From: Verrucomicrobiota bacterium
Lineage (GTDB): Bacteria > Verrucomicrobiota > Lentisphaeria > JABSQK01 > JAJFLO01
Direction of reading: 5' to 3'
Length of the DNA stretch: 64,000 nucleotides
NCBI GenBank assembly: GCA_021772675.1
Contig: JAJFLO010000040.1
Coordinates: 5,083 to 69,082 of the forward strand
Shown: piece after piece, positions 13,113 to 34,058 of the stretch
Position numbering within the stretch: the stretch's first letter is position 1
Layout of the letters: the number at the start of each line of letters is the position of its first letter
Position numbers and translations under genes: made by a program
The notes under the pieces: generated by a model
What the model was told of the DNA's origin: nothing
The model's input: only the letters and a program-made list of their open reading frames with translations
The model's database searches: none

Positions 13113-13134
13113 GATTTTTCCTTTTTTAAGTGGC

Positions 13135-14340: not shown

Positions 14341-14415
14341 AAGATTTTATTTAGTCGTGCGGGCAGTCCTGTCTGTGTAAAATTTTGTATGTTTGCTGTG
14401 CTGCCATGATTTCAT

Positions 14416-14530
14416 CTCAGCCAGGAATGACCGAGTTACTTAGTGGCGCGTACATTCTTGTCTGCGTATTTTTTTTAATTTTTCCTGCTATAATGCCCTA
14501 ATTTTCTCAGCCAGGAATGACTGAGTTACC
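14416..14530. repeat. two further REP units (period 90 bp) on the other side of the RAYT gene
   Basis: CTCAGCCAGGAATGAC(C/T)GAGTTAC at 14416 and 14506, in the same orientation as the 13135-13740 array. Confidence 0.75.
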
Positions 14531-14597
14531 CAAAATAATTTTTCCGCGCTTCGCGCAAAGAATTAAGGGTAAAAAACTAAAAGAATAAAGGGTAAAA

Positions 14598-17500
14598 CTA
14601 AACGTCTCGCAAAACAACCCGACAACCGTAGCTGTCCCACCGGCCGCCCGGGGCGTCGTCGATGCGGGCAGAGCAGGAGCAGGAGTCTGGATCGCGGTAC
14701 CAGGCGCCGCCCCGCAAAACACGGAACCTACCATCATCAGGACCTTCGGGGTCTTTCTTTGTTGAGTCCTTATAATAATCACTTTTATACCAGTCCCTGC
14801 ACCACTCCCAGACATTACCGGCTAGATCATAAATTCCCTCCGGTGTTTGTCCAGAGGGGTAACTGCCCACCGCTGATGGTTTGCCCAAATTAGATTTAGA
14901 GTAGTTCGCATATTTTTCTGAAATATCATCATTTCTCCACGGGTAAAGCGCATCGGAACGGCCGCGAGCCGCATATTCCCATTCAGCCTCTGTCGGCAGT
15001 TGGACGATCGTTTTTTGCGGTAGGTCTGATTCGCTTTGCAGGTGCCCAGTCAGCCAACTGCAGAAGGCTTCAGCTTCATACCATGAAACTCCAATAACAG
15101 GTTGATTAGGACTACTAAATTCTTCGTTGTCCCAATATTCAGGTTGGACCCATTTATTTGATTGACGCTGCTTCCAGCCTGCTTCGCTCCACCATTTTCT
15201 GTCATCATATCCTTTGGTATCGATAAACATTTTATATTGGCCGTTGGTAATCGGGTACCGGCTCATTTTAAATGGAGTTAATTCAACATCATGTTTAGCC
15301 TTTTCTCTTCCCATTGTAAAGCAGCCACCCGGAAGGTCAACCCACATTTCAATATCAAAATCACAGACTCCGGAGCGTTGATCGCCTGACCAGCCAAGAA
15401 TCAAACCAGCGTCAACGCGCTCATGTGCAGCGAGTTTCTCTTCACTCAGTAATGTTGTCAAGCGGCTGTTGAGCCGTGTCAAAAACTGAGGACCGCCTCC
15501 CTGTTTATCATTCTCAATCGGTCCCCGCTTGATGATGCGTGCAAAGTGTCCCGCCCACAAAACACCGCGCCAGTCATCTTCACGTTTCGGCTCGGGAATG
15601 CCGGGGCACAGGCTGTACGTTAAATCCAATGCCGGGTTTTCATTGCCGTCATTAAAGAGCAGTTCTTCCATTCCGAGTTCTACGCTAAGACGCCAGTATT
15701 CACCTTCCGCGAGTAATTCTTTGACCGTACGATTAAAACTTCGTGTTCGCTTTGCCAGATAGCAACCGGCAAAATACTCCTGGAATGTCCGGTGGGGAAA
15801 GGCATAAACACGCTCGACATCCTGACCACGACCGCTCAATAACCCGGAGGTCGTATCGATATAATCCAGCAGTTTCATTGCTGCTTTTTTTGAGTCGGTA
15901 ACAACACCGGATAAATTTTTTGTAAAACTGCTCATTGCCATTGCCCAGGGAATATCCGGCATTTGCTCTCCATCGCGACCGGCTTTTTGTGCCAGATAGC
16001 CCAGTTCCCATAATGCAAAGAGCATCCGTGTCTCATCCGATAATCCGACATCGTCAAATAATGAAACCTTTTGACCTATTCTAACTTCCTGCCATCGTTT
16101 CATCATCAGCATTGCCGCCTGGTCATAAAGTTTCACTCGTTGACGCGGCAGTTCGACATTGGTCGTATGAACACCGGCCAGGGTGGTCAGTAATAAGGGA
16201 TTACTGACCATATCCTCTGGTAGTCTGCCAACAGCCTGTTGCAGATTATCTGTTTTTGTCTGTGCCCAATCTGCGGGTTTGCCAAGTCGGTGCAGCGCCT
16301 GATACCAGTACGTGATAAAATTATTGATCTGTTTGTTGCTGAATGGGGCCAGGGTGATCGTTTGATACGTTGCTATGACGGTATCCTTAACATAAGAAAG
16401 TATACGGCATGTCACAATTATTCGATTACCCTTGGAGCCGACGGCGAGAATTCCCAATACCTCACGTAACAGGAATTGGTCGTCCTTTGGCACTTCATCT
16501 AAACCATCGAACACCAGCAGGCATCGGTCATCTTCCAGCAGACGAACGAGTTCACTGCTGAAACCGGATAGGCCATCAGCGTCTAATTTTTTCTGAAGAT
16601 GCTTTTTAATGATGCGCATAAACTGGCATAAACGCTGTTCCTGAGTTGATTTTATATATTGCTGCGAATTCTCTTCCTGTAGTGTTACCAGTAATTCTCG
16701 CAGGACGACGCGGATTGGGAAATAATGGCGATGGGGCCAGTCTTTTAATGATACAGATTCGGGGTTAAGTTGACGTTCAGCCAATTGCCAGAGAAGGTGA
16801 TTGATAAATGAGGTTTTGCCGGATCCCGGATCACCCAGAATAACCAGCAGCGGTTCATTCGCTGCCGCTTCTAACGCTGTGAGTGGTCGGACTTTGTCAT
16901 CTCCGAAATGAAAACGATCCTCGTTTACCTTGGCAGGCTTACCTTGTTTATCAACGAATGTCGTCGTATTTAATCCGATATAAATCTGGTCCAGAGTAAG
17001 GCGGAGATTCGCCTGTGGGTCGCCGCTTTTTGCTATATCAGCCAGAGGTAGAAGATTGCACACTGTCGATAAATTCTTAAAATAACGTTGGCGCAAAACC
17101 TCGATCGGGACCGAAGGCTCTTGTGGTTCTGTTGGTATCAGAGTTTCCGATGATGCTTCAGGAATATAATCTCCCTGAATATAACCGATGTGATTATGGC
17201 CGTGTTTGTCCTCGATCTTCAGGCGGTTCCATTTCAGCTCCGTTAAATGAGAAAAATCCGTTGACTGCTTTAATTCATCATCAAGTGTGTGGCGAAAAAG
17301 CATGGTTGTAAAGAGCGCGGACGGCTCTCCGGATGCAGTCTGGAATTTTTTGAATTCCCCTTCGCTCATCAACCGTTCGGCATCGGCCATCACCGAACCG
17401 TAGTATTGATCACCCACCAGTTCCACATTACCGTAAGCCAATACCAGGCGCAGTGACAGTGGCAGATCGCCGCCTTTTATCCCTTCATTGTATTCGACCA

Positions 17501-17780
17501 GGTCATGACGTAGTTTCTGTGTATACTCCAGCGCCACATCCGTTGAGATTCCCTTTAAGAAAATATAATATCCGTCTCCTGTTCCATGACGTTCAAAAAG
17601 TTGCGAAAACGGCATTATCGGGCTGATAAATTTTCCGGCCTGATCCATTGATTCCCCGAGTTGTTTCAGGATAATTTTACGGTGAACGTCGTCCTTGTAG
17701 AGACTAGTAAAGCCGACGATATCGACCAGCAGAATGGGAAACATTTTATTAGTAGTCATTGATTTGGTGGTGGCTGACAT
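14598..17780 (-). CDS. DGR target protein 1: cyclase-homology-like N-domain, NACHT NTPase, FGE-type C-type-lectin domain with C-terminal VR
   Basis: 1060 aa. The N-terminus carries FPILLVDIVGFTS, GTGDGYYIFL and GSVMADAERL. NACHT Walker A is LGDPGSGKTSF and Walker B is LLVFDGLDEV. The C-terminus carries FGE-sulfatase-type motifs: [42 protein letters not shown]. The last 116 nt match the TR. Confidence 0.9.
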   Translation of the reverse strand: MSATTKSMTTNKMFPILLVDIVGFTSLYKDDVHRKIILKQLGESMDQAGKFISPIMPFSQLFERHGTGDGYYIFLKGISTDVALEYTQKLRHDLVEYNEGIKGGDLPLSLRLVLAYGNVELVGDQYYGSVMADAERLMSEGEFKKFQTASGEPSALFTTMLFRHTLDDELKQSTDFSHLTELKWNRLKIEDKHGHNHIGYIQGDYIPEASSETLIPTEPQEPSVPIEVLRQRYFKNLSTVCNLLPLADIAKSGDPQANLRLTLDQIYIGLNTTTFVDKQGKPAKVNEDRFHFGDDKVRPLTALEAAANEPLLVILGDPGSGKTSFINHLLWQLAERQLNPESVSLKDWPHRHYFPIRVVLRELLVTLQEENSQQYIKSTQEQRLCQFMRIIKKHLQKKLDADGLSGFSSELVRLLEDDRCLLVFDGLDEVPKDDQFLLREVLGILAVGSKGNRIIVTCRILSYVKDTVIATYQTITLAPFSNKQINNFITYWYQALHRLGKPADWAQTKTDNLQQAVGRLPEDMVSNPLLLTTLAGVHTTNVELPRQRVKLYDQAAMLMMKRWQEVRIGQKVSLFDDVGLSDETRMLFALWELGYLAQKAGRDGEQMPDIPWAMAMSSFTKNLSGVVTDSKKAAMKLLDYIDTTSGLLSGRGQDVERVYAFPHRTFQEYFAGCYLAKRTRSFNRTVKELLAEGEYWRLSVELGMEELLFNDGNENPALDLTYSLCPGIPEPKREDDWRGVLWAGHFARIIKRGPIENDKQGGGPQFLTRLNSRLTTLLSEEKLAAHERVDAGLILGWSGDQRSGVCDFDIEMWVDLPGGCFTMGREKAKHDVELTPFKMSRYPITNGQYKMFIDTKGYDDRKWWSEAGWKQRQSNKWVQPEYWDNEEFSSPNQPVIGVSWYEAEAFCSWLTGHLQSESDLPQKTIVQLPTEAEWEYAARGRSDALYPWRNDDISEKYANYSKSNLGKPSAVGSYPSGQTPEGIYDLAGNVWEWCRDWYKSDYYKDSTKKDPEGPDDGRFRVLRGGAWYRDPDSCSCSARIDDAPGGRWDSYGCRVVLRDV
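14607..14722 (-). other. DGR variable region VR1
   Basis: 116-nt alignment to TR 18897-19012. By hand count, 19 of the 20 differences fall on TR coding-strand adenines. Confidence 0.9.
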
Positions 17781-18341: not shown

Positions 18342-18720
18342 TGTGTGTTTTGAATGAAAAAAAGTTACCGGACCTGAATCCGTTCTAAATCCGTTTTTGG
18401 CGATAATATACCGATTGCTATCAGGTTTTCGACAGGTTTCTGAAAAATCGCCAACTGAAAGATTCATGGCGCGGCCATTCCTGTCTGTGTAATTTTTAAG
18501 ATTTGACTTGCAGACACGCGTTATCTCCCTCAGTCAGGAATGACCGAGTTACTGCAAGATATGTATTAATCCTTTTTTAATTTTTTAACAAGCGGTGATA
18601 CATATTCCTTAATTTGCCATTGTTCAAGAAATGCTTCAATTGTAATAGAAAGTTTATGCATAATGCAGATTAGGGCTGCCATTTTTCTAACACGTTAAAA
18701 AATATTAAATTTAAGTTTTC

Positions 18721-18778
18721 AAAAAAAGTCCCGGCACGGACGTTCGAACCATACAGGCCTACCAGCCTCTGCCGGGAC
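18721..18778 (-). terminator. putative intrinsic terminator/structured 3' end of the DGR transcript
   Basis: On the minus strand, GTCCCGGCA ...(33 nt containing the palindrome GTTCGAAC)... TGCCGGGAC is followed by TTTTTTT. The loop is unusually long for a simple terminator. Confidence 0.45.
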
Positions 18779-18843
18779 GGTGTTTTATTTGGCCCGGTCG
18801 TAATGACCGAACACAGGAACAAACTCAGACGTTTCTGATATGC

Positions 18844-18867
18844 CCGGCAAATTCGTAAATTTGCCGG
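18844..18867 (-). other. perfect 10-bp stem, 4-nt loop hairpin about 30 nt downstream of the TR
   Basis: CCGGCAAATT-CGTA-AATTTGCCGG, read directly. Confidence 0.6.
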
Positions 18868-18896
18868 CTCTAATCGGTATAGCCAAATGAATCGTA

Positions 18897-19012
18897 TCGC
18901 AAAACAACTCGAAAACCGTTGTTGTTCCATCGGTTGTTCGGGTTGTTGTTGATGCGGGCAGAGCAGGAGCAGTTGTCTGGATTGTTGTTCCAGGCGCCGC
19001 CCCGCAAAACAC
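18897..19012 (-). other. DGR template region (TR)
   Basis: Begins 5 nt after the RT stop. The minus strand reads in target frame as [38 protein letters not shown], with 12 Asn codons (11 AAC, 1 AAT). It is homologous to the 3' ends of three genes. Confidence 0.9.
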
Positions 19013-19016
19013 ATTA

Positions 19017-20084
19017 CTAGTAGCTTGTCCCCTTAGTAAGTCGAACCCGACCAAGAACCCGGGTTCGCAGCCGGTAACTGCTGCCCCAACGAACATGACC
19101 AACCCAACTTTGAATGGATTGATGGATTCGATCTAGGGAAATCTCATTATTGTTATATTGACAACATAGTTTTTGTAAATGGCGTTGGTACCGACGGGAT
19201 TTCTGTTTTAATGGAATTCTGTGTGTCGGCCAATTACGAAATCCAAGAAACTGACACCCTTCCCTAACACGGAGAACCTGGCATTTTTTCGGGTGAATTT
19301 TCAACCGAAAAGATGCCAAATAGTGTTTGATTTTACTACAAATCTCCCACAACTGCTCTTTACTATGGCCGAATACTGCAAAATCATCCATATAACGCAA
19401 ATACGGAGGCTGGTGCAGTTGCTCTTTTATGAAATGGTCCAGTGGGTTAAGATAGACATTCGCGAATAATTGGCTGGTTAGATTTCCTATAGGTAGGCCT
19501 CGCCTGCGCATATAGGGTGTAAAAAGGTCATCACCTGGGAAATAATGTTCCATCTCCTCCTGAGGATTACTGTTACTTATGATTTTCTCGATCAGTTCCA
19601 GTGTTCGCTGACATCCGATTTTTCGCCTGATTCGCTGAAGCAGAATGTCGTGGTCTATTGACGGGAAGAATTTTTGGATATCACATTGTAACACCCAGGG
19701 AAATTGGCAGCTGTAATCCTGAAATTTCAGCAGTGCTTTATGAGTTCCTTTTCCGGACTGGCAGGCATAGGATGTCGTAATAAATGTTCGATCAAAAATG
19801 GGTTCAATGATTTGGCAGATTGCATGGTGTACCACCCGATCACGATAAGGCGCAGCGCTGATTAAACGCTCTTTCGGTTCAAATATCTGAAAGCTGCGAT
19901 AATTTCCAGGCTGAAAATATCCTTCCGTTAATTCTCGCTGGAGTGTTAAGAGTTCATTTTCGAGATGATATTCAAAACGCGCCGTTTCGGTACGAAAGCG
20001 TTTACCTCTGCGTGCAGTTCGGGAAGCGCGCAGGAGATTTTCGAAACATGTTATTTTCTGGAAAAGATTTTTTGCCGTTTTCAT
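19017..20084 (-). CDS. DGR reverse transcriptase
   Basis: 355 aa. Motifs are [39 protein letters not shown] (the DGR-typical I/LGxxxSQ) and the catalytic YMDDFAVF. No group II intron maturase or endonuclease extension is present. An avd-like gene and the TR are adjacent. Confidence 0.92.
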
Positions 20085-20434
20085 GGTTTACGTTGTTGTT
20101 TCAACCAGGCGCCCACCTCTGTGCCGATGTCATTGACAAGCTGTGCTGCATGGCCGTAACGTTTTGTGCTCAGACAACGCAGGTCTTTCGCCAGTCGCAG
20201 CGAAAACCGAAGCTGCTCAATCAGTAAATTGACTTTTTGCAAACTTGTTTGTTTATTTCGGCTAAATTTTGCTTCAATAAGCATCGTTAAAACATCACTG
20301 GCATTTGTTTCAATGCGATCGCCAAGGGTAAATTTTCGGGATCGTGGAAATTTATCTAGCATGGGGATTAACCAAAGAAGAAAATCATAGGTTTTGGTGA
20401 TTACGGACAATTCTTTTGGACACGGCATTATCAT
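20081..20434 (-). CDS. avd: Avd-like accessory protein (four-helix-bundle, 23S rRNA intervening-sequence protein family)
   Basis: 117 aa. [28 protein letters not shown] is typical of this family. The protein is basic, and it overlaps the RT start by 4 nt (ATGA). Confidence 0.85.
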
Positions 20435-20517
20435 ATCCCATTATTTTCATTAATTTTTTTTTCCGCGCTTCGCGCAAAGAATTAAGGGTAAAAAGAGTAA
20501 AAGAAAAAAGGGTAAAA

Positions 20518-23500
20518 CTAAACGTCTCGCAAAACAACTCGAAAACCGCCGAGGCTGATCCATCGGCCGCCCGGGTAGTAGTCGATGCGGGCAGAGCAGG
20601 AGCAGTAGTCTGGAGCGCTGTACCAGGCGCCGCCCCGCAAAACACGATATTTACCACGATCAGGACCATTTGGATCTTTCTTTTCTGAATTCTTGTAATA
20701 ATCTTCATTATACCAATCCCGGCACCACTCCCGGACATTGCCGACAAGATCGAAAACCCCCTCCGGTGTTTGGCCAGACGGATAACTGCCAACCGCTGAT
20801 GGTTTGCCGATATTCGATTTAGAGTAATTCGCATATTCTTCTGAAATTTTGTCATTTCTCCATGGATAAAGCGCATTGGATTGACCACGGGCGGCGTATT
20901 CCCATTCAGCCTCGGTCGGCAGTCGTACAATCGTTTTTTTCGATAGACCTGATCCAGTATGCAGATGTCTTGTCAACCAGTTGCAAAAGGCTTCGGCTTC
21001 ATACCATGAAACACCGGTAACGGGTTGATTCGGAGCGTTTGCTTCTTCATTGGTCCAATGTCGGGGTTCGTCCCATTCATTTGATTTACACCGCTTCCAG
21101 CCCTCTTTGCTCCATAATGTGTCGTCATTATATCCGCTTGCATCGATAAACATTTTGTATTGCCCGTTGCTAATCGGGTACCGGCTCATTCCAAACCGGG
21201 TTAACTCAACCTCATGACTGGCCTTTTCTCTTCCCATTGTAAAGCGGCCACCCGAAAGGTCAACCCACATTTCAGGATTAAAATCGCATACTCCTGGCCG
21301 TTGATCGCCTAGCCAACCCAGAATCAGGCCGGCATCAACGCGTTCACGGAATGCAAGTTTACCATGTGTGACCAATGCTGTCAGATGTTTATTTAACCGA
21401 CCTAAAAATTTTGGTCCGTTGCCTTCTTCATCCTTCTTTATCGAGCCTGCGCCAATGATGTGCGCTAGATTTCCAGCCCAGAAAATACCGCGCCAGTCTT
21501 CTTCTGATTCAGGTTCTCGGTCCTCTGGACATAAAGAATACGTCAACCCAAGGGCGGGGCGTTCATTTCCGTCATTAAAGAGTAGCTCTTCCATGCCAAG
21601 CTCAATGCATAATCGCCAATAATCTCCCTGTAAGAGTAATTCTTTGACCTTTTGATTAAAATTGAGTGTTCGTTTTGCCAGGTAGCAGCCTGCGAAATAC
21701 TCCTGAAATGTTCGATGAGGAAAGGCGTAGACCCTGTCAGTTTCTCCACCACGGCCATGCAGTAATCCTGATGTTGTATCGAAATAATTCAGTAATTTTA
21801 CAGCAGCTTCTCTGGGTTGCAGGACGATCTCTTCCAGGTTTTTTGTAAATATTTCGACTGCCGTGGCCCAGGGAATGTCAGAAATTTTTTCAGAATCCTT
21901 CCCCGCTTCATGGGCCACATAGCCAAGTTCCCATAACGGATAGAGCATTCGCGTTTCGTCCCTTAATCCAATGTCATCAAACAATGACATCTTCTGGCCG
22001 ATCCTGACTTCCTGCCAACGTTTCATCATCAGCATTGCAGCTTGATTGTACAGCGTCACTCGCTGCCGCGGCAGTTGCAGATTCGTTGCATGGACACTGG
22101 CCAATGTCGTGAGCAGCAGAGGATTTCTAACCATATCAACAGGAAGTTTGCCGACAGCCTGCTTCAGGTCATCAGTTTTTTCAGCTGACCAATCAATGGA
22201 TTTTCCAAGTCGATGCAGGGCGAGATACCAGTGATCAATGAAGTCATTTATTTGCTCCCTGCTGAATGGAGCGAGTGTGATATTACGGTAGGTTGGCAGC
22301 ACGGTATCCTTCACATAAGAAAGAACACGGCAAGTTACTATGATACGATTGCGCCGACAGCCGCCGGCAATGATTTCCAATGCTTTACAGAGAAGCAGTC
22401 GATCGTCCTTTGGCACTTCGTCAAGACCGTCAAATATCAACAGACACTGATCATCCTCCAAAAGGCGAAACAGTTCATGGCTAAAATCGGTCAGGTTATC
22501 CGAGTCTAATTTTTTCTGCAAATGCTTTTTTATGATGCGCATAAACTCACGCAGCCGCTGTTCTGGAGCACACCCAACATATTGATCCGCATTTTCTTCG
22601 TGCAGTGTTAGTAATAATTCCCGCAAGATGACGCGAATAGGAAAATAATGCCTATGGGACCAGCCTTTTAACGATTCAGAGTCCGAGTTGAGTTGATATT
22701 CTGCCAATTGCCATAAAAGATGATTGATAAATGAGGTTTTACCGGATCCCGGATCACCCAGCATAACAAGTAGTGGTTCGTTGGTCGTTGCCTCTAAAGC
22801 AGTGAGTGGCCGTGTTTCGTTTTCCCCAAAATGTAAATGATCATCTTTTTTATCGATAGTTTTTCCCTGTTTGTCAATGAAAGTCGTTGTATTTAACCCG
22901 ATATAAATTTTGTCCAGTGTCAGGCGAAGATCAGATTGTGGATCGCCACTTTTAGCGATATCCGCCAGAGGTAAAAGATTACAAACTATTGATAATTTTT
23001 CGAGATAACGTCTACGTAACACGCCCACCGGGATTGAAGGCGATTCTGGTTCAGTTGCAGTCGGAGTTTCATAGGGCGCTTCCGGCACATAATCACCCTG
23101 AATGTAACCGATGTGTTCATAACCGTGTTTGTCTTCGACCGGGAGTCGGCTCCACGTTAAACCGGTTAAATGAGAAAAATCATTGTTCTCGGTTAAATCA
23201 TCCTCAAGTTTGTGGTAAAACAGCATTGTCACAAATAATGCGGATCGGACTTTACAGCTTGACTGGAATTTTTTGAAATTTTTATCATCGATCAGCCGAT
23301 TTGCATCGGCCATTACCGAACTGTAGTATTGATCGCCAATAAGTTCTACATTACCATAAGCTAACACCAGACGCAGTGATAGGGGCAGGTCTTTACCTTT
23401 ACTACTTCCGTTGTATAATTCCAGTTTTTGGCGAAGTTGCTGAGTATATTCCATGGCAACCAGTGATGAAACGGCGTTAAATAAAATATAATACCCATCC

Positions 23501-23709
23501 CCTGTTGTTTCACGCGGGAACAGTTGTGAAAATTTGATTACCGGACTAATAAAAGTCCCGGCATCATCTATCAATTCCTGAAATTGCCTCATGACTGCCT
23601 TACTGTGAGTGTCATCATGGTAGCGTGATTTAAAGCCGACGATATCAATCAGCAGTATTGGAAACATTTCATTTTCTTTGATATTCATCCTACATTCTCC
23701 ATTTTTCAA
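20518..23709 (-). CDS. DGR target protein 2 (cyclase-like, NACHT, FGE/CLec with VR)
   Basis: 1063 aa, collinear with target 1 at high identity by eye. Motifs are FPILLIDIVGFKS, TTGDGYYILF, LGDPGSGKTSF and LLIFDGLDEV. Lies immediately upstream of avd on the same strand. Confidence 0.9.
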   Translation of the reverse strand: MKNGECRMNIKENEMFPILLIDIVGFKSRYHDDTHSKAVMRQFQELIDDAGTFISPVIKFSQLFPRETTGDGYYILFNAVSSLVAMEYTQQLRQKLELYNGSSKGKDLPLSLRLVLAYGNVELIGDQYYSSVMADANRLIDDKNFKKFQSSCKVRSALFVTMLFYHKLEDDLTENNDFSHLTGLTWSRLPVEDKHGYEHIGYIQGDYVPEAPYETPTATEPESPSIPVGVLRRRYLEKLSIVCNLLPLADIAKSGDPQSDLRLTLDKIYIGLNTTTFIDKQGKTIDKKDDHLHFGENETRPLTALEATTNEPLLVMLGDPGSGKTSFINHLLWQLAEYQLNSDSESLKGWSHRHYFPIRVILRELLLTLHEENADQYVGCAPEQRLREFMRIIKKHLQKKLDSDNLTDFSHELFRLLEDDQCLLIFDGLDEVPKDDRLLLCKALEIIAGGCRRNRIIVTCRVLSYVKDTVLPTYRNITLAPFSREQINDFIDHWYLALHRLGKSIDWSAEKTDDLKQAVGKLPVDMVRNPLLLTTLASVHATNLQLPRQRVTLYNQAAMLMMKRWQEVRIGQKMSLFDDIGLRDETRMLYPLWELGYVAHEAGKDSEKISDIPWATAVEIFTKNLEEIVLQPREAAVKLLNYFDTTSGLLHGRGGETDRVYAFPHRTFQEYFAGCYLAKRTLNFNQKVKELLLQGDYWRLCIELGMEELLFNDGNERPALGLTYSLCPEDREPESEEDWRGIFWAGNLAHIIGAGSIKKDEEGNGPKFLGRLNKHLTALVTHGKLAFRERVDAGLILGWLGDQRPGVCDFNPEMWVDLSGGRFTMGREKASHEVELTRFGMSRYPISNGQYKMFIDASGYNDDTLWSKEGWKRCKSNEWDEPRHWTNEEANAPNQPVTGVSWYEAEAFCNWLTRHLHTGSGLSKKTIVRLPTEAEWEYAARGQSNALYPWRNDKISEEYANYSKSNIGKPSAVGSYPSGQTPEGVFDLVGNVREWCRDWYNEDYYKNSEKKDPNGPDRGKYRVLRGGAWYSAPDYCSCSARIDYYPGGRWISLGGFRVVLRDV
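20527..20645 (-). other. DGR variable region VR2
   Basis: 119 nt. There are 17 substitutions relative to the TR, all at TR adenines, plus one extra codon inside the 3'-most AAC run. Confidence 0.9.
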
Positions 23710-23736: not shown

Positions 23737-26700
23737 TTAGATCAATTGCATCACAACACGAAAGCCAATGGTGTTCCAACTAGTTTTGGCTTTCGTTTGA
23801 TTGCGGGCAGTAACCTGGCAGCTGCCGGACCCATCTATCCAGGACCCGCCGCGCAGCGCTTTAAGATGATCTGGCTCACTACTCTGTACGATTTGATTAA
23901 TATCAGGTATAACGCTTAAATCCGGTTGCTCCCACCCGTTCAGGCACAATTCCCATATATTTCCCGCCATGTCCATGATGCCCTCCGGAGTCGCTCCGTC
24001 AGGATATAAGCCTGCCACCGTTGTGTGGCCCATCATTTCGTCACAATTTGCCCGATTTTTATTCGGTGTCTCATTGCCCCACGGATATCTCCTGCCACCC
24101 CGGCCTGCCACCCATTCCCACTCCATTTCCAGTGGCAGGCGAAACTGTCGCTGGCTCCTATTCTTATCGACGTCTTTTGCCTGCATTGTCAGCCATTGAC
24201 AATACTGCATCGCACTGTACCAGGAAATACCAATAACAGGTTGGTTATCTTCATTGAATTTTCGGTTCTCAAAATCCTTTGAATTATGGATTTGAACCTC
24301 TGCATCTGTAAAGGAATTCAGAAACGTCCGGTACCGCAGATTAGTGATGGGATATTTCGCTATATAGAGGTCGGAAATCGACACCTCTTTTACGGTGGCA
24401 GAAAAGCGAAATTGTCCGCCCGGTACAAAGATATATTCGGCATTATTTTCAATTGAATTAAAAAAGTGACTTTCTTTTGGCGCAGTCTTCGTATCTTGAG
24501 GACACTCTACACCCCATTTTGTAAGCAGTTCAGATGCTAGATTTCTCAACGATTTTTCCCCGTCATCTATTAACGACATGACCGCCGTAATGACACGTTC
24601 AGACGCATGGTGGCGCAGGCATTGCAGGGAATTATATCGCTTTCGCCAGGAATACCGTCTATCAGTCAACACCATGATAATGGGATCGATGGGTAACCGT
24701 ACAGATTCCCGAACCATTTGCAGCAGCAGTGGTGATGTCGCACCATCGTTGCCATCATGGGGGAGAAATAATTCAAGAAATTGCGGAAAAATAGCCGGTT
24801 CGGTCAGGCCGGCTGAAAAGAGAATGGTTTCCCGCCACCAATCGTCATGGAAGTTTGCCACCAATAGATCTGCCCGACCGCGATTGGCAATTTCGACAGC
24901 GGCAAGATACTCGCGAAATGATTTGTGTTGAAACATGTAGGTGTCATTTGATTTAACAAGGACCCCGGCGCGGTCACAGATATAGTTCAGAAATTGTGCC
25001 GATGAGATTTCGGGGTTGATTTTTTTCAACATGCCGGTGATATATGTCTCAATTTTTTTACCGGGCAATTCATCTGCATGTAGCTCGTCCTGCATCCAGA
25101 ACGATAAATTTTGGAGTATCTTTTTGGTTTCTGTTGTCGTCAGGAGCGGTTTAATCCGTTTTCTCCGATCGCGGTGATCGAGGAGATAGTTGATACTGCG
25201 GTTGTATAATAACATCCGGCCACCGGCAAGGCTGCCATGTTCCCGCCAGATAATCGCCATAATCTGTAGCAGCACCGGGATGCCGGCCATTTCCTTCAGC
25301 GAGCGGTTTCCATCCTCTGCCAGAAACGTGATAATATCATTGGCGTGAGTTGCGGACTCTTTCTTTAATGAGTCGCTGTTTTCTTCGTTGCTGCGTTCGG
25401 CAGGATCCAGCTCCGCTATGCTTACGGCATAAAACCAGTGAAGGAGGTATTCTTGTTGTTGATCGGAATTTAAATCGAGAACATTGGCACGGATGTGGGG
25501 CAATTTAAGGAAAATGCCTTCATGTTCATGATACCCGGTAAAGCGACAGGTGACGACAAAGACGGATTGATTATATACTGGAACGGCATGGTCAATCCAT
25601 CGGCAAATCTGCTTTCGCTTTTTCAGACTGCCGACTTCATCCAAACCATCAAGCAGCACCAGAATACCGGGTTCTTTCAACCAGTTTTTTAGTGTGCGTT
25701 TTGAAAAATTGAAATTTCTAATTTTAGCCCATTTCACCAGTGATTCGATGAAGGGCTGGTCCGGGTTAATTTCCCGGAGCGGCACCAGTAATGGGATAAG
25801 CGGTTTTTTGAGAGAAAGTTGATTCTGCCCGGAATTGTCGATGGAACAGATTTCTAAATAGCGCATCAGTGTGGTTTTTCCTGAACCCGGATCGCCGAGG
25901 ATAAGTATCGATTTAGAGTCCGCCATGGCTTGTGTCAAAAGTTGCCGGGGCGACAGTAAACGCTCAGTCTCTTCCTTCGGTTCTTTAATTTCAGGCAGAC
26001 TGTGACCGTATTCTGTAAGTCGAAGGGAAACAAATGCATCGAAAAGGTTTACAGAGATGTTCGCTGAAGACAGGAAACCAAATAAGTTAATGCGACCATG
26101 TTCAATGTGTATCGCTGCCAGATAGCGCTGTAGTGTCTTATCGTCATCAATTCCTGTTTCAGACGTGATCCTCTCGTCATTTACGTAGGCTATGTCATCC
26201 TGGTTATAACTTTCCTGAGACTGTAACTGTGACCAATTCAGTTTGGTGAGTTTTGATGTCAGTGGAGATTTTGTCAATTCACTCTCCAGCAAGTTATGAA
26301 AAATTGCGGTTGAAAACAAGATCGAATGCCCGTCACTGTATTCTTGATAGGATTTTAATTTTTCATCACGAACCAGGTGTTGTGCATCCGTGATCAGGGA
26401 GTCAGCATACTGGTTAATATCCAGGTCTGTCCGCTGCCAGGCCAGAATTAGACATAGTCTGAGTGGCGTGTTTACTCCATTGTGATGTGTGTTGTATTGG
26501 TACAGATTACTGCACAGGGCTTTAACAAAGACGAATGCGGTATCTATCGGCTGATTTTCCAAAAATAAATAATACCCGTTTATGGAATTTGTTTGCTTAA
26601 AGAACCGGGAAAACGGTGTATACGGTGAAATCATCTCTCCGGTGAAATCGATCAGGCTCTGGAGAACTTTTATGACGTGCATGCGTTCGAATTCGGTTTT

Positions 26701-28983
26701 GTAGATTGAGGAAAATCCGACAATATTTATCACCAGTAGCGGGCCATTGGCAGTTTTTTCGTTGTGAGTGATCAAGTGCCTGATTTCTAACGGCAGTTCA
26801 AGCAGTGCCCGTGTATTTCCTGATGCGTCCAGTCTGACGGCCTTTAAAATATCTATAACCGTTTGACCGCCCGGTACATTTATTAATATTTCGGGAAGTA
26901 ATATTTCAGCATTCTTCAAGTTATTTGCCATTCGCTCAGATATGGGCAGAGCCCCCTGAATCCAGAGAATGAGTCCGGATATAAGGGCATCATAGTCTTT
27001 TTTAAGTATTGGAAGAAACTCCTTCAATACTTCAGGATTGGCAAACATGACATCAATCAGCTCACATATCATCGCGACACGGTCTTGATGACCGGGGCTG
27101 GTATCATCCCATGTCCTGACCAGCAATTGATTGGCGTCTTCATAGGCGTGATCGTTTAGGTGCATGAAAAGTTTAAGCCGCTGTGGTATGGGGAACTGTT
27201 TTCCTGCCTTTTGCATATAGCCGCTATTGGCAAGAATCAGATGCGACTGTGATCTTGCTACTAATGCAAATCGTCTATTAATCATGGCCATGACAGCAAG
27301 TTCCTGCAGACGCACACTGTCACTGTTATTCAGTGCCGAAATGAGATTGTCGTAGTCGTCTATAGCCTCTTCTGTGCGATTTAAGTCGCATAATATCATG
27401 GCCCGATAGAGTTTTGCCCGATAGAGGTCTTCCTCTGCCTGCGAGTCCTGATTTTTTTCAAATTCCCTGATCGCCGTTTCAAAGGTGGCGGCGGCGGCTT
27501 CTATCTGGTTCATTTCAACTAAAATTAACCCCCTGGCTAATGTGATCTTACCGGTTAATAGATCCGTATTAGTTCCATGTTGTGTGGCAATGAGTTGGCC
27601 CAGTTCGTTGACAGTACTTAATGCTTTTTGTTGCGTTTTCTCATGAGCGGCCAGAAGCACGGCCTGTTGGAGTAAAATATCAATATTGTCGGGAGTTATG
27701 CGCGCAGAGTGTTTTTTCAGAAAATCAACGTCAATAGCGTCGAACTCAGTTTTTGTTATGGCTGCTGAATAATAAGTCAGGCTTTCATTTTGCGCGTCTA
27801 TGATGCGGTGTTGCAATTCTGAGGTATCATACCAGCGCTGAAGAAAATTCACGATCAGGGGTAATGGCCGGTTTCGACCTTCTTTGATATCAAGCATGAG
27901 CCGGAGCAGCGGTTCATTTAATTCATAACAAGTCGTTCGTCCAACCTGAGTTTTACGGACAAATTCACCTTTATGAAGATCGGTTAGCTGACGGGAAACC
28001 ACCTGTGACGTGAGAATGGTATATCGGGCAATCTCTTTTACTGCAATGGCCCGGCCATGATGATCGGCAATCGCTCTTAAAATCTTGTTCTGCTGTGGTG
28101 ACAAACGATCCAGTCGCTGCTGATAATATGGAGTGAGCTCACGATCACAGAAGCAAATGAAGGGAGGTACCAGGTTTGCCAGTCCGTTGTCATCAAGAAA
28201 AATACTCAACATCGCCAGCAGTCTGTGATTGCCGCCAGTAAGGTCATAGACCGCATTTATACGTGGAATCGCAGTCTCTTTATTTAACTCAATCGCGAGT
28301 TGGGGATTGCCGTTTGCCGATGCCAGACTGGCCAGAAACGATTGGGTGCCGTCGGGGGATAACGGCCTTAATGTATGGATATTAAAAAAACCGTAAAATG
28401 GATGATCTTCCTTGCCGTTTTGATATTTTGAGGTTGCTGACGCAAGTAGTGATACCGATGAATGGGTTTGAAGAAAGCCTCGCAGTGGGCCAATCTGGCC
28501 TTCGCTCTGTAAGACGGTGAAGATATCATTGAGATTTTCGATTATCAACAGTACGGCCCGCTGGTTTATCGTTTCCTCCAGCATTTCCGTAACCAATTCA
28601 AGTGCGGCGGGCATCGTTAAACCGGTAATTTTTTCAATGATTGTTGTCCGTGCTTCTCCAGCAGCACATATTACCGTCATAATGAAATCCAGTAATGAAC
28701 TGATGCCGCGTTCCTCTTCTGAGAACGGTATAATTAACACATTTTCGTCATTTTGAGAGTAATGTGGTATGGAGTGACGAATATAGGCCAGGAGATGGGT
28801 TTTTCCTGATCCTCGCGGACCGATAATCAAATGGTGATTGGATGATTGAGAACCCGCTATCGACTGGATATCCGCCATTATCGTTTCTGCCAGTTTTCGA
28901 CGGTCCCGGGTAAGCAGTTTGTCAATAACATCCAGTGAATTATTTTGCGGACTGAAAATTAAGGGAAGTGAATAATTATCCAT
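23737..28983 (-). CDS. 1748-aa multidomain STAND protein: AAA+ (ORC/Cdc6-like) ATPase with HTH, TPR-like region, degenerate cyclase-like domain, NACHT, FGE-type domain without VR
   Basis: N-terminal Walker A is IIGPRGSGKTHLL. TPR-like helical repeats follow. The cyclase-like block reads LLVINIVGFSS / NSINGYYLFL. NACHT motifs are LGDPGSGKTTLM and ILVLLDGLDEV. C-terminal FGE motifs are GISWYSAMQYCQWLT, LPLEMEWEWVAG, NIWELC and ALRGGSW. The 3' end has no nucleotide homology to the TR. Confidence 0.85.
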   Translation of the reverse strand: MDNYSLPLIFSPQNNSLDVIDKLLTRDRRKLAETIMADIQSIAGSQSSNHHLIIGPRGSGKTHLLAYIRHSIPHYSQNDENVLIIPFSEEERGISSLLDFIMTVICAAGEARTTIIEKITGLTMPAALELVTEMLEETINQRAVLLIIENLNDIFTVLQSEGQIGPLRGFLQTHSSVSLLASATSKYQNGKEDHPFYGFFNIHTLRPLSPDGTQSFLASLASANGNPQLAIELNKETAIPRINAVYDLTGGNHRLLAMLSIFLDDNGLANLVPPFICFCDRELTPYYQQRLDRLSPQQNKILRAIADHHGRAIAVKEIARYTILTSQVVSRQLTDLHKGEFVRKTQVGRTTCYELNEPLLRLMLDIKEGRNRPLPLIVNFLQRWYDTSELQHRIIDAQNESLTYYSAAITKTEFDAIDVDFLKKHSARITPDNIDILLQQAVLLAAHEKTQQKALSTVNELGQLIATQHGTNTDLLTGKITLARGLILVEMNQIEAAAATFETAIREFEKNQDSQAEEDLYRAKLYRAMILCDLNRTEEAIDDYDNLISALNNSDSVRLQELAVMAMINRRFALVARSQSHLILANSGYMQKAGKQFPIPQRLKLFMHLNDHAYEDANQLLVRTWDDTSPGHQDRVAMICELIDVMFANPEVLKEFLPILKKDYDALISGLILWIQGALPISERMANNLKNAEILLPEILINVPGGQTVIDILKAVRLDASGNTRALLELPLEIRHLITHNEKTANGPLLVINIVGFSSIYKTEFERMHVIKVLQSLIDFTGEMISPYTPFSRFFKQTNSINGYYLFLENQPIDTAFVFVKALCSNLYQYNTHHNGVNTPLRLCLILAWQRTDLDINQYADSLITDAQHLVRDEKLKSYQEYSDGHSILFSTAIFHNLLESELTKSPLTSKLTKLNWSQLQSQESYNQDDIAYVNDERITSETGIDDDKTLQRYLAAIHIEHGRINLFGFLSSANISVNLFDAFVSLRLTEYGHSLPEIKEPKEETERLLSPRQLLTQAMADSKSILILGDPGSGKTTLMRYLEICSIDNSGQNQLSLKKPLIPLLVPLREINPDQPFIESLVKWAKIRNFNFSKRTLKNWLKEPGILVLLDGLDEVGSLKKRKQICRWIDHAVPVYNQSVFVVTCRFTGYHEHEGIFLKLPHIRANVLDLNSDQQQEYLLHWFYAVSIAELDPAERSNEENSDSLKKESATHANDIITFLAEDGNRSLKEMAGIPVLLQIMAIIWREHGSLAGGRMLLYNRSINYLLDHRDRRKRIKPLLTTTETKKILQNLSFWMQDELHADELPGKKIETYITGMLKKINPEISSAQFLNYICDRAGVLVKSNDTYMFQHKSFREYLAAVEIANRGRADLLVANFHDDWWRETILFSAGLTEPAIFPQFLELFLPHDGNDGATSPLLLQMVRESVRLPIDPIIMVLTDRRYSWRKRYNSLQCLRHHASERVITAVMSLIDDGEKSLRNLASELLTKWGVECPQDTKTAPKESHFFNSIENNAEYIFVPGGQFRFSATVKEVSISDLYIAKYPITNLRYRTFLNSFTDAEVQIHNSKDFENRKFNEDNQPVIGISWYSAMQYCQWLTMQAKDVDKNRSQRQFRLPLEMEWEWVAGRGGRRYPWGNETPNKNRANCDEMMGHTTVAGLYPDGATPEGIMDMAGNIWELCLNGWEQPDLSVIPDINQIVQSSEPDHLKALRGGSWIDGSGSCQVTARNQTKAKTSWNTIGFRVVMQLI

Positions 28984-30195
28984 TTACCAACCTTTATGAA
29001 CGTAGTCCCACCAACGTCGTACTAGTGGTAGTTTAAAACGCCATGAATTCTGATTGTCCCGGAGCAGATAATGATCGTCTAAAAGTAATTTAAGCATCAC
29101 ACCGGCATATTCTTTATCGATATCTTGATAAGTTTCATCATATCGCAGTATCTTCACCAGCGCATCGAATTCCAAACCGTGTTCGAATTGACAGAGTTTT
29201 CTTAGTATGGTTCGTGCCAGCTCGGCTTTTTCATCCGGATAGTAGGCAGCCAGGCGACTTTTGTAATAATTGAACTCAGCCGGGTCCCCGTGCGCATCAA
29301 ATAATTGTTCTGGAATCGCTTCTATTATAGCCACTGTCCATGGGGACTCTTCGTTCTCCGACATCCATTTTACTATATGCTGTATGTAGAAGGGGACAAA
29401 GCAGGCGGTGTTGGCAATCGCTTCGGCACACTTGGCGATTGAATCACAAGGAATGGCTTCTCCCCGGATAAGACTGCCGGCAAGATACGTGCCGTCTTCA
29501 GAAGATAAAGGCGGAAGTTCAATTGGCGGTATATCATTGACGGGTTGTCCGGTATAACCAAATGATGTGAGTTTATCGAGGACGATATGTAATCCGAGGG
29601 AACCACAAAATAACATGCGGAAATTTGGATGTTCATGTCGAAGCGCACGCAAATCATCAAGGATGCGAATGGCATCATGCGCGTGATTATTTTTGATTAA
29701 TCCATCAAGAAAATGTGGCAGTTCGTCAATGATTAGAACCACCATGCGATCATCTGCGTTCCGAACAGCGTCAGCAACAGTTTCTTCGAGAAAAGTACTC
29801 CAGCTGGTTACTTCAGGAAGGCGTTGAGTTCCGATAGTTTGGCCCTGTAATTTTTGTGCCTGCCGCAGGAACCAGTCTTTTGCTCGTTGTAATCGCCGAT
29901 CATCAAATAGATTTTCGATATGGATTTGCTGATTAATTCGCCAGATTAGTTCAGGTGCCGATTTGTCACGTTGTGCGTCGATAAACAAGGTAACGGCAGA
30001 TTCGGGTGCGATAGCGCGGGCGAGTTGAATCAGCCATGTTTTTCCCATACGGCGTTCTGAGAGAATGCGCAGACTTCCGGATTCCAGCCGCCGCCACAAG
30101 AGCTGTGCCAGCTTCTCTCTTCCAAAAACGAATTCGGAGGCCTCCCCTACGCTTGGATTGCCAAACTTGAGCTTTGTCGGTTTATAATTCATCAT
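28984..30195 (-). CDS. ATP-binding protein (AAA-type, archaeal-ATPase/DUF234-like)
   Basis: 403 aa. P-loop-like ERRMGKTWLI and Walker B VVLIIDELPHF. Its stop codon abuts the start codon of the 1748-aa gene (TAA then ATG with no spacer). Confidence 0.7.
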   Translation of the reverse strand: MMNYKPTKLKFGNPSVGEASEFVFGREKLAQLLWRRLESGSLRILSERRMGKTWLIQLARAIAPESAVTLFIDAQRDKSAPELIWRINQQIHIENLFDDRRLQRAKDWFLRQAQKLQGQTIGTQRLPEVTSWSTFLEETVADAVRNADDRMVVLIIDELPHFLDGLIKNNHAHDAIRILDDLRALRHEHPNFRMLFCGSLGLHIVLDKLTSFGYTGQPVNDIPPIELPPLSSEDGTYLAGSLIRGEAIPCDSIAKCAEAIANTACFVPFYIQHIVKWMSENEESPWTVAIIEAIPEQLFDAHGDPAEFNYYKSRLAAYYPDEKAELARTILRKLCQFEHGLEFDALVKILRYDETYQDIDKEYAGVMLKLLLDDHYLLRDNQNSWRFKLPLVRRWWDYVHKGW

Positions 30196-30278
30196 TAATC
30201 GTACGACCTTTTTATCGTACGATAGATTCCGTCAATTGATTTTGCAAGCGCGTTCGGAAATTTTTTGCATCAAAAAAA

Positions 30279-30612
30279 TGTCCCGATACGGACGTTCGAA
30301 CCACAGGCTTACCAGCCCGAACCGGGACGGTGTTTTATTTGGCCCGATCGTGATAACTCACATTTTAGGTTTCATTTTCGATTTGTTATTCAAATATGGT
30401 TAACTTGCAATCAAAACTGAGTAACGCAGTTCCACGCAAAGCGAGACTAAATCTGTTATCTAGCTGGCTGTGCAAATCACAAGACATCTCAGCCAGGAAT
30501 GGCCGAGTTACTTTAACAAATCAAAACTGAAACCTAAAATGTGGGTAATAACCGAACACAGGAACAAATCATACGTCTTGGTGATTACCGTTAATTCTTT
30601 CGGGCATGGCAT
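30279..30612 (-). pseudogene. remnant of a second DGR cassette: avd 5' stub fused to post-TR sequence and a terminator copy, interrupted by a MITE
   Basis: 30612 downward encodes MPCPKELTVITKTYD, versus intact Avd [17 protein letters not shown]. At about 30567 homology jumps to the sequence found at 18806-18826. 30279-30350 matches 18726-18800. Confidence 0.65.
30356..30546. repeat. family A composite MITE (third copy)
   Basis: Outer inverted repeats are ACTCACATTTTAGGTTTCATTTTCGATTTGTTA ... TAACAAATCAAAACTGAAACCTAAAATGTGGGT. The REP arm is CTCAGCCAGGAATGGCCGAGTTAC. It is inserted within the cassette remnant. Confidence 0.65.
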
Positions 30613-33700: not shown

Positions 33701-33865
33701 AATCACTGTACTGATAAAAGACCCGGCCTGTTCGATCAATTCCTGGAATTGTCGGGATATGGCTTTGCGGTGTATATCATCTTTATACTGGGATGTGAAT
33801 CCGACGATATCGATACACAGGATTGGAAACATTGGATTTTCTGAAATAGCTGTACTCATCTGCAC
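30713..33865 (-). CDS. DGR target protein 3 (cyclase-like, NACHT, FGE/CLec with VR); C-terminus frameshifted inside the VR
   Basis: 1050 aa as read. The N-terminus (FPILCIDIVGFTS, KTGDGYYILL) resembles targets 1 and 2. The centre and FGE domain resemble the 1748-aa protein. A 1-nt length excess in the VR replaces the expected ...GFRVVLRDV ending (stop at 30781) with QPPRFSGCFARRL... running to 30713. Confidence 0.8.
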   Translation of the reverse strand: MQMSTAISENPMFPILCIDIVGFTSQYKDDIHRKAISRQFQELIEQAGSFISTVIPFSKLFEREKTGDGYYILLKTISTMDALEYTQHLRQEVTRYNLEEKGKDLPLSLRLVLAYGTVELVGDQYYSSVMADANRLIDDKNFKQFMNESKEPSALFSTMLFHHKLKEEFDQPNGYSHLRELKWSRLPVEDKHGQEHIGYIQGDYIPTASQSRRVKSKAAKRKDGENKLLRNYLEVVNREHSRISLFGFLSSANIPVNLLDAFVSLRLTESGRDFPEIRVEKETNNRLVSPRQLLVRAITEDKSILILGEPGSGKTTLMRYLAICSIDDSKREQLSLKKPLIPLLIPLREIDPQQPFVNSLAVWAINRNLELSKDILKDWLHEPGLLVLLDGLDEVSSLENRKSVCRWIDNAATAYGESIFVVTCRFTGYSQADGIFLNRSHIQAEVHDLDENQQKDFLIHWFTASALEEVHAEKLNNSTVKKNELEIQATIHADDIMNFLGKDENQSFRDMAGIPVLLQIMAIIWREQGSLSGSRVSLYDRSINYLLDHRDRKKHIEPLVNAAEAREILRYLSLWMQSKLKKDELPGNKIEEYITGMLEEINPKITPTEFLNYMRDRAGVLVKSNDSYMFQHKSFREYLAAVEIANRGLADLLVENFNDDWWRETILFSAGLTEPAVFSEFLTEFLIDDHNGGATLPLLLQMVQESVRLPIAPIIAVLTDHRYSWRKRYNTLQCLRNHPSERVITAVKSISNDKETLLRNLTSELLAEWNVDVPSKKAGKQASIVSSVTDKTNYIFISGGSYQFPVTKKKVSVSNLYVAKYPVMNKHYRQFIASLSSNEVKKYMSDYLDDRRFGGDEQPVVGVNWYGAMAYCHWLTETWPMDHFDNPNARFSLPTEVEWEWIAGNGNRKYPWGPETPDKTRANFGSKVGQTTPVGSYPEGATPEGVMNMAGNVWEWCMNRRDDPEFQLADRTNLSDIAIKRKDSDWTVLRGGAWNYGPDSCSCSARIAYDPGGRWQPPRFSGCFARRLVLPFFLLIFLPFSVARSAEKKF
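30790..30905 (-). other. DGR variable region VR3
   Basis: About 18 substitutions relative to the TR, all at TR adenines, plus 1 extra nt in the 3'-most AAC run. Confidence 0.85.
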
Positions 33866-33966: not shown

Positions 33967-34058
33967 TATACTGCAAGCAGTAGGTTTTTCGACATTCGTT
34001 ATTCATTTCAGGCAACAATTTTACAGAAACCTGTCGAAAACCTGATGGCTGTCGGTAT
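33967..34058. repeat. family B structured repeat (inverted orientation)
   Basis: Reverse complement of the 11685-11776 type. Lies about 100 nt upstream of the target 3 start. Confidence 0.6.

Follow-up and report, generated by a model that had tools for sequence, protein, structure and literature searches.

In the survey of diversity-generating retroelements (DGRs) by Wu et al. 2018 (PMC5758913), the order avd (accessory variability determinant), reverse transcriptase (RT), template repeat (TR) constitutes Architecture B2. The DGR of Bordetella phage BPP-1 has the order mtd-avd-TR-brt, and its spacer RNA has been described by Handa et al. (bioRxiv 10.1101/2023.10.23.563531). Its first element is an Avd-binding stem-loop of 11 bp with a UNCG loop. 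Next come a primer strand, complementary to the 3' end of the TR, and a strand complementary to 11 nt upstream of the TR (the "cPRT stop", for cis-primed reverse transcription). After a short stem-loop, unpaired adenosines and a single-stranded "thumb ring", the series closes with a long stem that binds the RT and is interrupted by two interior loops. On the target side, Doré et al. 2024 (PMC10907252) have defined an "antigen sensor" class of proteins that resemble NOD-like receptors (NLRs), and have described many of the N-terminal extensions of the targets as uncharacterised. Here, we describe a DGR with likenesses to all three in a 64,000-nucleotide stretch of DNA from a Verrucomicrobiota bacterium (assembly GCA_021772675.1, contig JAJFLO010000040.1, positions 5,083 to 69,082), which we call the window. 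On its minus strand, which carries all genes, repeats and RNA elements of the DGR, avd, RT and TR follow each other in this order without any other accessory gene. The cassette is a genuine DGR of known architecture and with a known class of targets. We put the probability that the locus is a chromosomal DGR of the avd-RT-TR type, with an RNA scaffold analogous to that of BPP-1, at roughly 85%.

The relation between the TR and three variable repeats (VRs) carries the assignment. The TR (19012..18897, 116 nt) contains 30 adenines and, in the reading frame of the VRs, 12 AAY codons, which is the classic design of a DGR template. In a blastn search, the TR recurs with 81-82% identity at 14722..14595, 20645..20515 and 30905..30778. 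Alignment to the TR places VR_A (14722..14598), VR_B (20645..20518) and VR_C (30905..30778) at the 3' ends of three target genes, A, B and C. Adenines of the TR are mismatched at 19 of 30 sites in VR_A, 16 of 30 in VR_B and 16 of 28 in VR_C, against 1/86, 0/86 and 1/86 for all other sites (2/258 in total). Thus, adenine sites, although they make up only 30 of the 116 TR positions, account for 51 of the 53 mismatches, and we estimate the binomial probability of this bias at about 1e-27. An earlier note on this DNA had taken the repeat for a DGR template, and the three VRs, which differ from it almost solely at adenines, bear this out. The most 3' of the mutated adenines, at 18909, is situated 5' of the site where priming is predicted. 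At 14 of the 28 comparable adenine sites the three VRs differ from each other.

Length differences between the TR and the VRs are confined to the (AAC)3 run of the TR (18918-18926). VR_B has gained 3 nt, or one codon, at this place (20545-20556), and VR_C has a net gain of 1 nt (30805-30814). CAGCCTC is common to both at the AAC run, and both length changes fit a template with four AAC triplets, which suggests that VR_B and VR_C descend from a common template of this kind. Indels opposite the AAC codons of a TR, and one frameshift in a VR, have already been documented by Wu et al. The 3' ends of the repeats differ in the manner of the initiation of mutagenic homology sequences IMH and IMH*, with GCGAGACGTTTAG in the VRs and GCGATACGATTCA in the TR. 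A GC-rich GCGCGAAGCGCG hairpin is found 3' of all three VRs and not 3' of the TR, as expected of a DGR. The lectin end of a 1748-aa protein encoded upstream of target B was considered as a fourth VR and rejected, being only 61% identical to the TR and changed at all four bases.

The products of avd and RT belong to DGR families, as the earlier note had proposed. The 117-aa avd product (20434..20081) scores 108.9 bits with the NCBIfam equivalog model DivGenRetAVD (cut-off 80) and matches Pfam bAvd with an E-value of 9.9e-20. The 355-aa RT (20084..19017) matches Pfam RVT_1, and its start overlaps the end of avd in the sequence ATGA (20084..20081), as had been noted. Its best solved relative in the Protein Data Bank (PDB) is the bRT of BPP-1 (8ub7, E-value 8e-60). 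The catalytic and the DGR-specific residues of the two align, with D135, IGNLTSQ (199-205) and YMDD (231-234) corresponding to D138, I181-Q187 and D215/D216 of bRT. All motifs quoted earlier, including YMDD, are present in the translation, and the alignment shows none of the inactivating substitutions in the catalytic motifs that the earlier note had named as a refutation. RTs of the DGR lineage are distinguished by an intact YxDD together with [ILV]GxxxSQ, in place of the QGxxxSP of group II intron and retron RTs, and the enzyme has both motifs intact. Its closest database relatives share 59-60% identity, 60% being the maximum in a collection of 5.8 billion proteins. Among GTDB representative genomes, the top-ranked relative is an RT of a Thiomargarita sp. 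(52% identity).

For comparison, we collected 80 loci with RT relatives (43-53% identity, one genome per species) and added two metagenome loci with the closest RTs; all 82 were screened for adenine-biased repeats. The sources of the 80 loci include Thiomargarita, numerous filamentous cyanobacteria, Planctomycetota and Chloroflexota. With Thiomargarita and filamentous cyanobacteria among the RT relatives, the locus resembles the DGRs of multicellular bacteria described by Doré et al. The names of RT homologues in the databases include "retron-type" and "group II intron" RT, and it could be thought that the enzyme is of another class (group II intron, retron or defence-associated RT, DRT) and that the repeats are near it by accident. 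The NCBIfam model for group II RT/maturases (TIGR04416) does match with 160 bits, and several DRT models match weakly. However, 160 bits is far under the cut-off of 300, and no group II intron RNA domains are found in the window with Rfam. The best E-values in the PDB for group II intron RTs (3.6e-26) and for a retron-type RT (5.6e-16) are also poor in comparison, the former by about 34 orders of magnitude relative to bRT. Moreover, avd is translationally coupled to the RT by the ATGA overlap, and adenine-specific TR/VR pairs are present at 59 of the 82 homologous loci. The assignment to another class is effectively refuted already, and we give it next to no weight.

The position of the cassette directly downstream of target B, on the same strand and in the order avd-RT-TR, had been given correctly. 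The RT stop codon TAG occupies 19019..19017, and homology between the TR and the VRs begins at 19012, or at 19011 in the case of VR_C. The close placement that had been claimed is right, with a gap of 4-5 nt depending on the VR. The earlier note had also remarked on a TR that follows the RT, unlike in the Bordetella phage prototype. The placement stands, but it is not unusual, since it is Architecture B2 and prevails among the relatives. In the 82 loci, the TR was found just after the RT in 49 cases and before it in 10, and was not detected in 23, so that it follows the RT at 49 of the 59 loci with a detectable TR. A close relative at 59% RT identity has the same order, with the TR inside an over-called RT open reading frame (ORF), and another at 57% has a TR-like repeat in the same position that failed the adenine-bias screen. 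As in other loci of Architecture B2, the core genes lie on one strand with a target gene upstream; the second cassette, now decayed, and the two further, remote targets are no difference in kind.

Upstream of target B, the same strand carries genes for a 403-aa AAA ATPase (28984..30195) and for the 1748-aa STAND protein (23737..28983), both identified with Pfam; the lectin end of the latter is not a target of this TR. The spacing of 0 nt between these two genes that had been reported is correct (TAAATG). The reported 27 nt between the STAND gene and target B hold only for a TTG start of the target at 23709. A second candidate, the in-frame ATG at 23688, is preceded at eight nt by GGAG and corresponds to the start region of target A. 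It is probably the true start, and the listed TTG wrong, which makes the distance 48 nt. Similarly, the 83 nt between target B (20518) and avd apply to the first ATG of avd (20434), and become 89 nt with the ATG at 20428. A remnant copy of avd keeps the start that corresponds to 20428, and this is probably the genuine one. We found no hairpin followed by a T-run in the minus-strand intergenic gaps between 30195 and 18728. Judged from the DNA, the arrangement is compatible with the suggestion that the ATPase, the STAND protein, target B, avd, RT and TR form a single long transcription unit. A terminator-like hairpin and T-run, itself part of a remnant, is present at about 30275, and any long operon that includes the ATPase gene must therefore start after this point.

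The stretch from the TR to the end of the cassette (18896..18721, 176 nt), which the earlier note did not account for, resembles a DGR spacer RNA. It contains the strand ACGAUUC (18895..18889) on the IMH* side, at the 3' end of the TR, followed by a small hairpin (18886..18874) and by P1, a 10-bp helix with a UACG loop (18867..18844). The predicted primer strand GAAACGU (18835..18829) would pair with ACGAUUC in a template:primer duplex. It is followed by the predicted stop strand AGUUUGUUCCU (18825..18815), with the partner GGGGACAAGCU (19032..19022, 11 pairs) in the last codons of the RT gene, and by P3 (18812..18792), after which comes CAAAUAAAACACC. An A-rich linker (18791..18779) leads to P4 (18778..18728), which consists of 9 bp, a 2x2 loop, 3 bp, a UGGUA/CGAAC interior loop and 4 bp. 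A run of seven T residues (18727..18721) follows P4 directly, so that the end of the element has the appearance of a terminator.

Since a full consensus could not be drawn from the rough MAFFT alignments of the RNAs, and since RNAalifold found no more than two helices, the structure was set by hand from the window sequence, built into a covariance model (R1) from nine sequences, and then tested on the model-based alignment. R1 has matches in several phyla, at 51 of the 82 related loci, and at two sites in the window. Wherever both a TR and a match were found, the match is directly 3' of the TR, and this includes five loci in which the TR precedes the RT. In the R1 alignment, 89% of the cells are paired (55% in shuffles), with changes on both sides of a pair in 510 cells (161 +/- 13 in shuffles); the alignment was fitted to the model structure, so that these counts favour it, but the margin is still large. 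Individual helices are 88-95% paired, and both-side changes occur at 30 of 31 pairs; when the partners are slid against each other, pairing drops to 34-52%. All helices are intact at the present locus. The 3' flank of the TR is thus a conserved, covarying RNA of about 160-175 nt.

As P4 and the T-run look like an intrinsic terminator, and as the fold z-score of the region after the TR, taken alone, is modest (-2.47), the stretch down to 18721 might be just a 3' untranslated region with no role in reverse transcription. This would not explain why the same multi-helix architecture, with extensive compensatory changes, follows the TR in 51 related loci of several phyla. In the five loci with the TR upstream, the element is followed by the RT gene and not by the transcript end, and two of its strands covary with sequences that flank the TR. 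We therefore regard a plain untranslated region as very improbable.

To test the two long-range duplexes, cognate and non-cognate partners were compared across 39 loci, with 10000 permutations. For the stop duplex, the cognate sum is -655 kcal/mol, compared with -439 +/- 16 kcal/mol for permuted partners, and not one of the 10000 permutations reaches it. The sequences vary widely between loci, as in GGGAAAAAAUC/GAUUUUUUCC and GGGGCGCGGCC/GGCCGUGCUCC, and the upstream strand ends a median of 6 nt before the TR. In the window, the 11 pairs of the duplex amount to -15.1 kcal/mol. For the primer duplex, a first broad test did not separate cognate partners (median rank 12 of 39), and separation was obtained only after the strands had been restricted. 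The cognate mean is then -7.5 kcal/mol and the non-cognate mean -4.8 kcal/mol, and again none of the 10000 permutations reaches the cognate sum. A different primer duplex, GAUA/UAUC plus GUUU/AAAC, had been entertained before and was dropped, because ACGAUUC/GAAACGU keeps the register with the relatives. The covariation and the cognate tests together argue that the RNA elements predicted for cis-primed reverse transcription are present.

In comparison with the cryo-EM structure of the BPP-1 complex (8ub7), the elements of the spacer RNA appear in the same order. The two systems also share the RT and Avd families, adenine-specific mutagenesis, a VR at the 3' end of a target with C-type-lectin fold, the IMH/IMH* asymmetry, and a GC hairpin downstream of the VR. 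They differ in the place of the TR and the spacer RNA, which follow the RT gene here and lie between avd and the RT gene in BPP-1. The upstream strand of the stop duplex is in the coding end of the RT gene instead of in avd, and the final hairpin is at the same time a terminator, unlike in BPP-1. Finally, the present element is chromosomal and has three dispersed, intracellular, NLR-like targets, whereas the BPP-1 element resides in a phage and diversifies a tail fibre.

By analogy with BPP-1, the RNA from about 19032 to the terminator at 18721 would fold around a complex of RT and Avd. P1 would bind Avd, and P4 would bind the RT and serve, at this locus, as intrinsic terminator as well. The strand after P1 may pair with the 3' end of the TR and prime cDNA synthesis at about 18896/18897. 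The next strand may pair with GGGGACAAGCU in the last RT codons, in a duplex that would halt the cDNA just upstream of the TR. For this purpose the strand in the RT codons would have to be about 0-13 nt from the start of the TR. The model thereby accounts for a TR tight behind the RT stop codon, given that the end of the RT gene supplies a strand which has to adjoin the TR. The adenine-mutagenised cDNA would then replace those VRs that end in the IMH-type sequence GCGAGACGTTTAG and are followed by the conserved flank, and the outcome would be a diversification of the ligand-binding tips of NLR-like sensors.

The RNA described here weakly resembles an Rfam family, RT-3 (RF03068), whereas the BPP-1 spacer is RT-10. 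RT-3 adjoins RT genes too, and the two RNAs have in common a tetraloop on a long first hairpin, a hairpin in the middle, an A-rich linker, and at the end a hairpin with a GGUA...CGAA interior loop. The match extends over the full length of the family (positions 1-148), but with 17.1 bits (E-value 0.04-0.085) it is below the gathering score of 40.5. This threshold was not reached by any of 25 related loci either, in which the only Rfam matches were group II intron families in one locus (L070), unrelated to the DGR; in the window, only a tRNA passes the Rfam gathering threshold. In the study of Weinberg et al. 2017 (PMC5737381), a DGR role was proposed for RT-10 only, RT-3 was given no function, and the authors conjectured that further RT motifs belong to other DGRs. 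That an RT-3-like RNA is linked to a DGR spacer suggests a function for this orphan motif, although the match is below threshold.

The three targets, A (14598..17780), B (20518..23709, the "target 2" of the earlier note) and C (30713..33865), are genes for proteins of about 1050 aa, each with NACHT and FGE-sulfatase (C-type-lectin) domains detected with Pfam. In targets A and B, the FGE-sulfatase match extends to the C-terminus (E-values 1.5e-58 and 3.8e-56), as expected for the fold of a DGR target, and in target C, which is frameshifted, it ends at residue 1012 of 1050 (6.1e-31). Target A is 70% and target C 34% identical to target B on the protein level. A central STAND NTPase combined with one C-terminal diversified lectin domain is the target architecture of Doré et al., and clade 5D of these authors shares with the present locus a central NACHT NTPase, a single C-terminal FGE-type lectin with the VR, at least two targets per locus, and transposable elements nearby. 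Unlike in clade 5D, the ATPase and the non-diversified 1748-aa paralogue stand in the same gene string.

Downstream of each VR there is a conserved flank (20452..20517 for VR_B, 14532..14597 for VR_A, 30715..30780 for VR_C) with TTTTACCCTT-type repeats and the hairpin already mentioned. The three flanks are about 97% identical over about 65 nt past the stop codon, and the proteins encoded next to them have diverged (34-70% identity). In the window, the hairpin behind the TTTACCCTT repeats is followed by an A-run, and in many relatives by a T-run instead. A perfect GC-rich hairpin is present in 56 of 78 VR flanks of the relatives. TTACCC or ACCCTT occurs in 34 of 76 VR flanks, compared with a background of 3% (about 15-fold enrichment) and with 2 of 59 TR flanks. 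The motif looks like a lineage-wide recognition element, and a non-exhaustive search found no earlier description of it. A 57-nt inverted repeat with 82% complementarity (18404-18460 and 34006-34062) is located in non-coding DNA upstream of targets A and C.

Several observations weigh against the reading of the locus as a DGR with a BPP-1-like RNA scaffold, in addition to the fitted R1 alignment and the RT-3 score discussed above. The primer duplex is weak in the window itself (-3.8 kcal/mol, with one A.A mismatch), and P1 and P4 have been given their binding roles by position and shape only. The locus is present in a single assembly, and the window proteins that were looked up are all on one contig of 78,976 bp. 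A scan of JGI metagenomes with the TR pattern, N being allowed at every A, gave no match and thus no population evidence of diversification. In VR_C, the additional nucleotide shifts the frame of the last ~12 codons of target C, so that the conserved ending GFRVVLRDV* can be read only in another frame, with the stop codon at 30783..30781. In VR_A, one T-to-G change (14634), which is not derived from adenine, has turned the conserved GFRVV of target A into GCRVV, with the loss of a conserved Phe. Lastly, seven adenine sites are G in all three VRs, where 1.6 would be expected (p 5e-5). Part of the pattern must hence be due to shared ancestry or selection and not to fresh independent events, and the adenine sites as a whole point to shared ancestry or selection plus independent events.

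In view of these findings, the element could be a relic that was once active and no longer diversifies its targets, with a TR/VR pattern that is a fossil spread by gene duplication. The frameshift in VR_C, the scaffold change in VR_A and the seven shared sites would fit such a decay, as would a neighbourhood rich in repetitive extragenic palindromic (REP) and insertion sequence (IS) elements. A further hint of decay is the loss of a second cassette at the same locus. Its remnant is found downstream of target C (30275..30612, minus strand), where R1 matches with 50.7 bits (30389..30277). The first ~47 nt of an avd gene (30612..30566), 80% identical to the intact one, are fused directly to the middle of a spacer RNA at GTTCCTGTG, with short imperfect homology (TATGATTT/TCTGAGTTT) at the junction. 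A REP-like insertion of about 195 nt follows the junction, and 75 nt of it recur in inverted orientation at 12236-12310. Beyond it, the spacer RNA continues with its 3' half, including hairpin and T-run; the rest of avd, the RT gene and the TR have been deleted. It follows that two target-avd-RT-TR units were formerly present at the locus. One of them lost avd, RT and TR, and its target, C, still matches the surviving TR.

Against a relic speak the ORFs of the surviving RT and avd, which are unbroken and retain every catalytic and DGR motif, and the helices of the spacer RNA, all of them intact. The VR flanks have stayed nearly identical next to diverged target proteins, and half of the adenine sites differ among the VRs while other sites have hardly changed. 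On balance, the DGR is apparently intact, and we consider it unlikely that it is a relic.

The surroundings of the cassette contain many mobile elements. A tandem array of at least seven 88-bp repeats with the motif CTCAGCCAGGAATGACCGAGTTAC (13068-13782) is found beside an ORF for an IS200-like Y1 transposase (13717-14340), in an arrangement that resembles REP sequences and their associated (RAYT) transposases. Single copies of the motif are present next to VR_A (14415-14529), downstream of the DGR terminator (18494-18552), and within the insertion by which the spacer RNA of the remnant is interrupted (30487-30510). In one of the related loci (L001), a repeat array and a Y1 transposase gene come right after the TR. 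The window represents chromosomal DNA and carries carA, a purH-like gene and genes for pili. Its GC content is 44-46% across 14-32 kb, against about 38-40% over most of the DNA on either side. A close relative, whose CarA belongs to the same cluster at 90% identity, loses synteny with the window right after the purH-like gene, where other genes and no DGR are found. These data suggest that the DGR region (12000-34400) is a variable or acquired region. On its other side, there are a tRNA-Thr(CGT) gene (34286-34361), a resolvase gene (35843-36370) and an ISL3 transposase gene (39996-41204). Further on, a gene for an outer-membrane transporter of the ShlB/FhaC type (37705-39360) is found near two very large ORFs of 1672 and 1804 aa (41199-46217 and 46523-51937); together, they may represent a two-partner secretion locus that is unrelated to the DGR.

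The N-terminal ~200 aa of the targets (23080-23709 in B, 17151-17780 in A, 33236-33865 in C, minus strand) form a domain that also occurs internally in the 1748-aa paralogue (residues 746-937). It has no Pfam match even at an E-value of 10, and PADLOC and PDB sequence searches gave nothing usable. A profile-free search found 86 homologues. When 52 sequences, including three paralogues from the window, are aligned, D22 is invariant, and the motifs DxxGF and TGDGYY are conserved; in the latter, G70 and G72 are invariant, and T69, D71, Y73 and Y74 nearly so. The AlphaFold2 model of the domain has a pLDDT of 94.7. All 50 Foldseek matches listed for it are class III adenylyl or guanylyl cyclases, with a best E-value of about 2e-8 and TM-scores of 0.54-0.64 when normalised to the query and up to 0.79 when normalised to the target. 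Class III cyclases are defined by the cyclase-homology fold together with two metal-binding aspartates. From the model, the domain is predicted to have a fold like that of class III nucleotide cyclases.

The targets would thus be cyclase-like/NACHT/lectin proteins, and they fit the NLR-like "antigen sensor" class as well as the conflict systems of Kaur et al. 2020. It is tempting to combine the predicted fold with the conserved VR flank, and to regard the targets as NLR-like receptors with a cyclic-nucleotide output, and the flank, with its TTTACCCTTT-type repeats and GC hairpin, as a portable address. A ligand on the hypermutated lectin tip would then drive the oligomerisation of the NACHT domains, and this would bring the cyclase-like N-domains together as dimers and cause the synthesis of a second messenger. 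The flank, in turn, would let one particle of RT, Avd and RNA reprogramme several dispersed receptors in trans. The combined proposal is speculative, and we regard it as doubtful. If true, it would mean that bacteria possess a family of receptors which are diversified in a somatic style and have a defined signalling output.

As a DGR, the element is sound but ordinary: one more, divergent member (RT identity of at most 60%) of a well-described class. The useful additions are the element-by-element map of the RNA, the remnant cassette, the motif in the VR flank and the predicted cyclase-like output domain. The locus may serve as a compact example of how an RNA scaffold of the BPP-1 type could be rebuilt with the TR behind the RT, in such a way that the stop strand would be encoded in RT codons and the putative RT-binding hairpin would be the terminator. 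It also exemplifies the use of one template for several distant targets, all with the same ~65-nt flank. Finally, it hints at a possible role of diversified NACHT proteins, which in this bacterium carry a predicted cyclase-like output domain.

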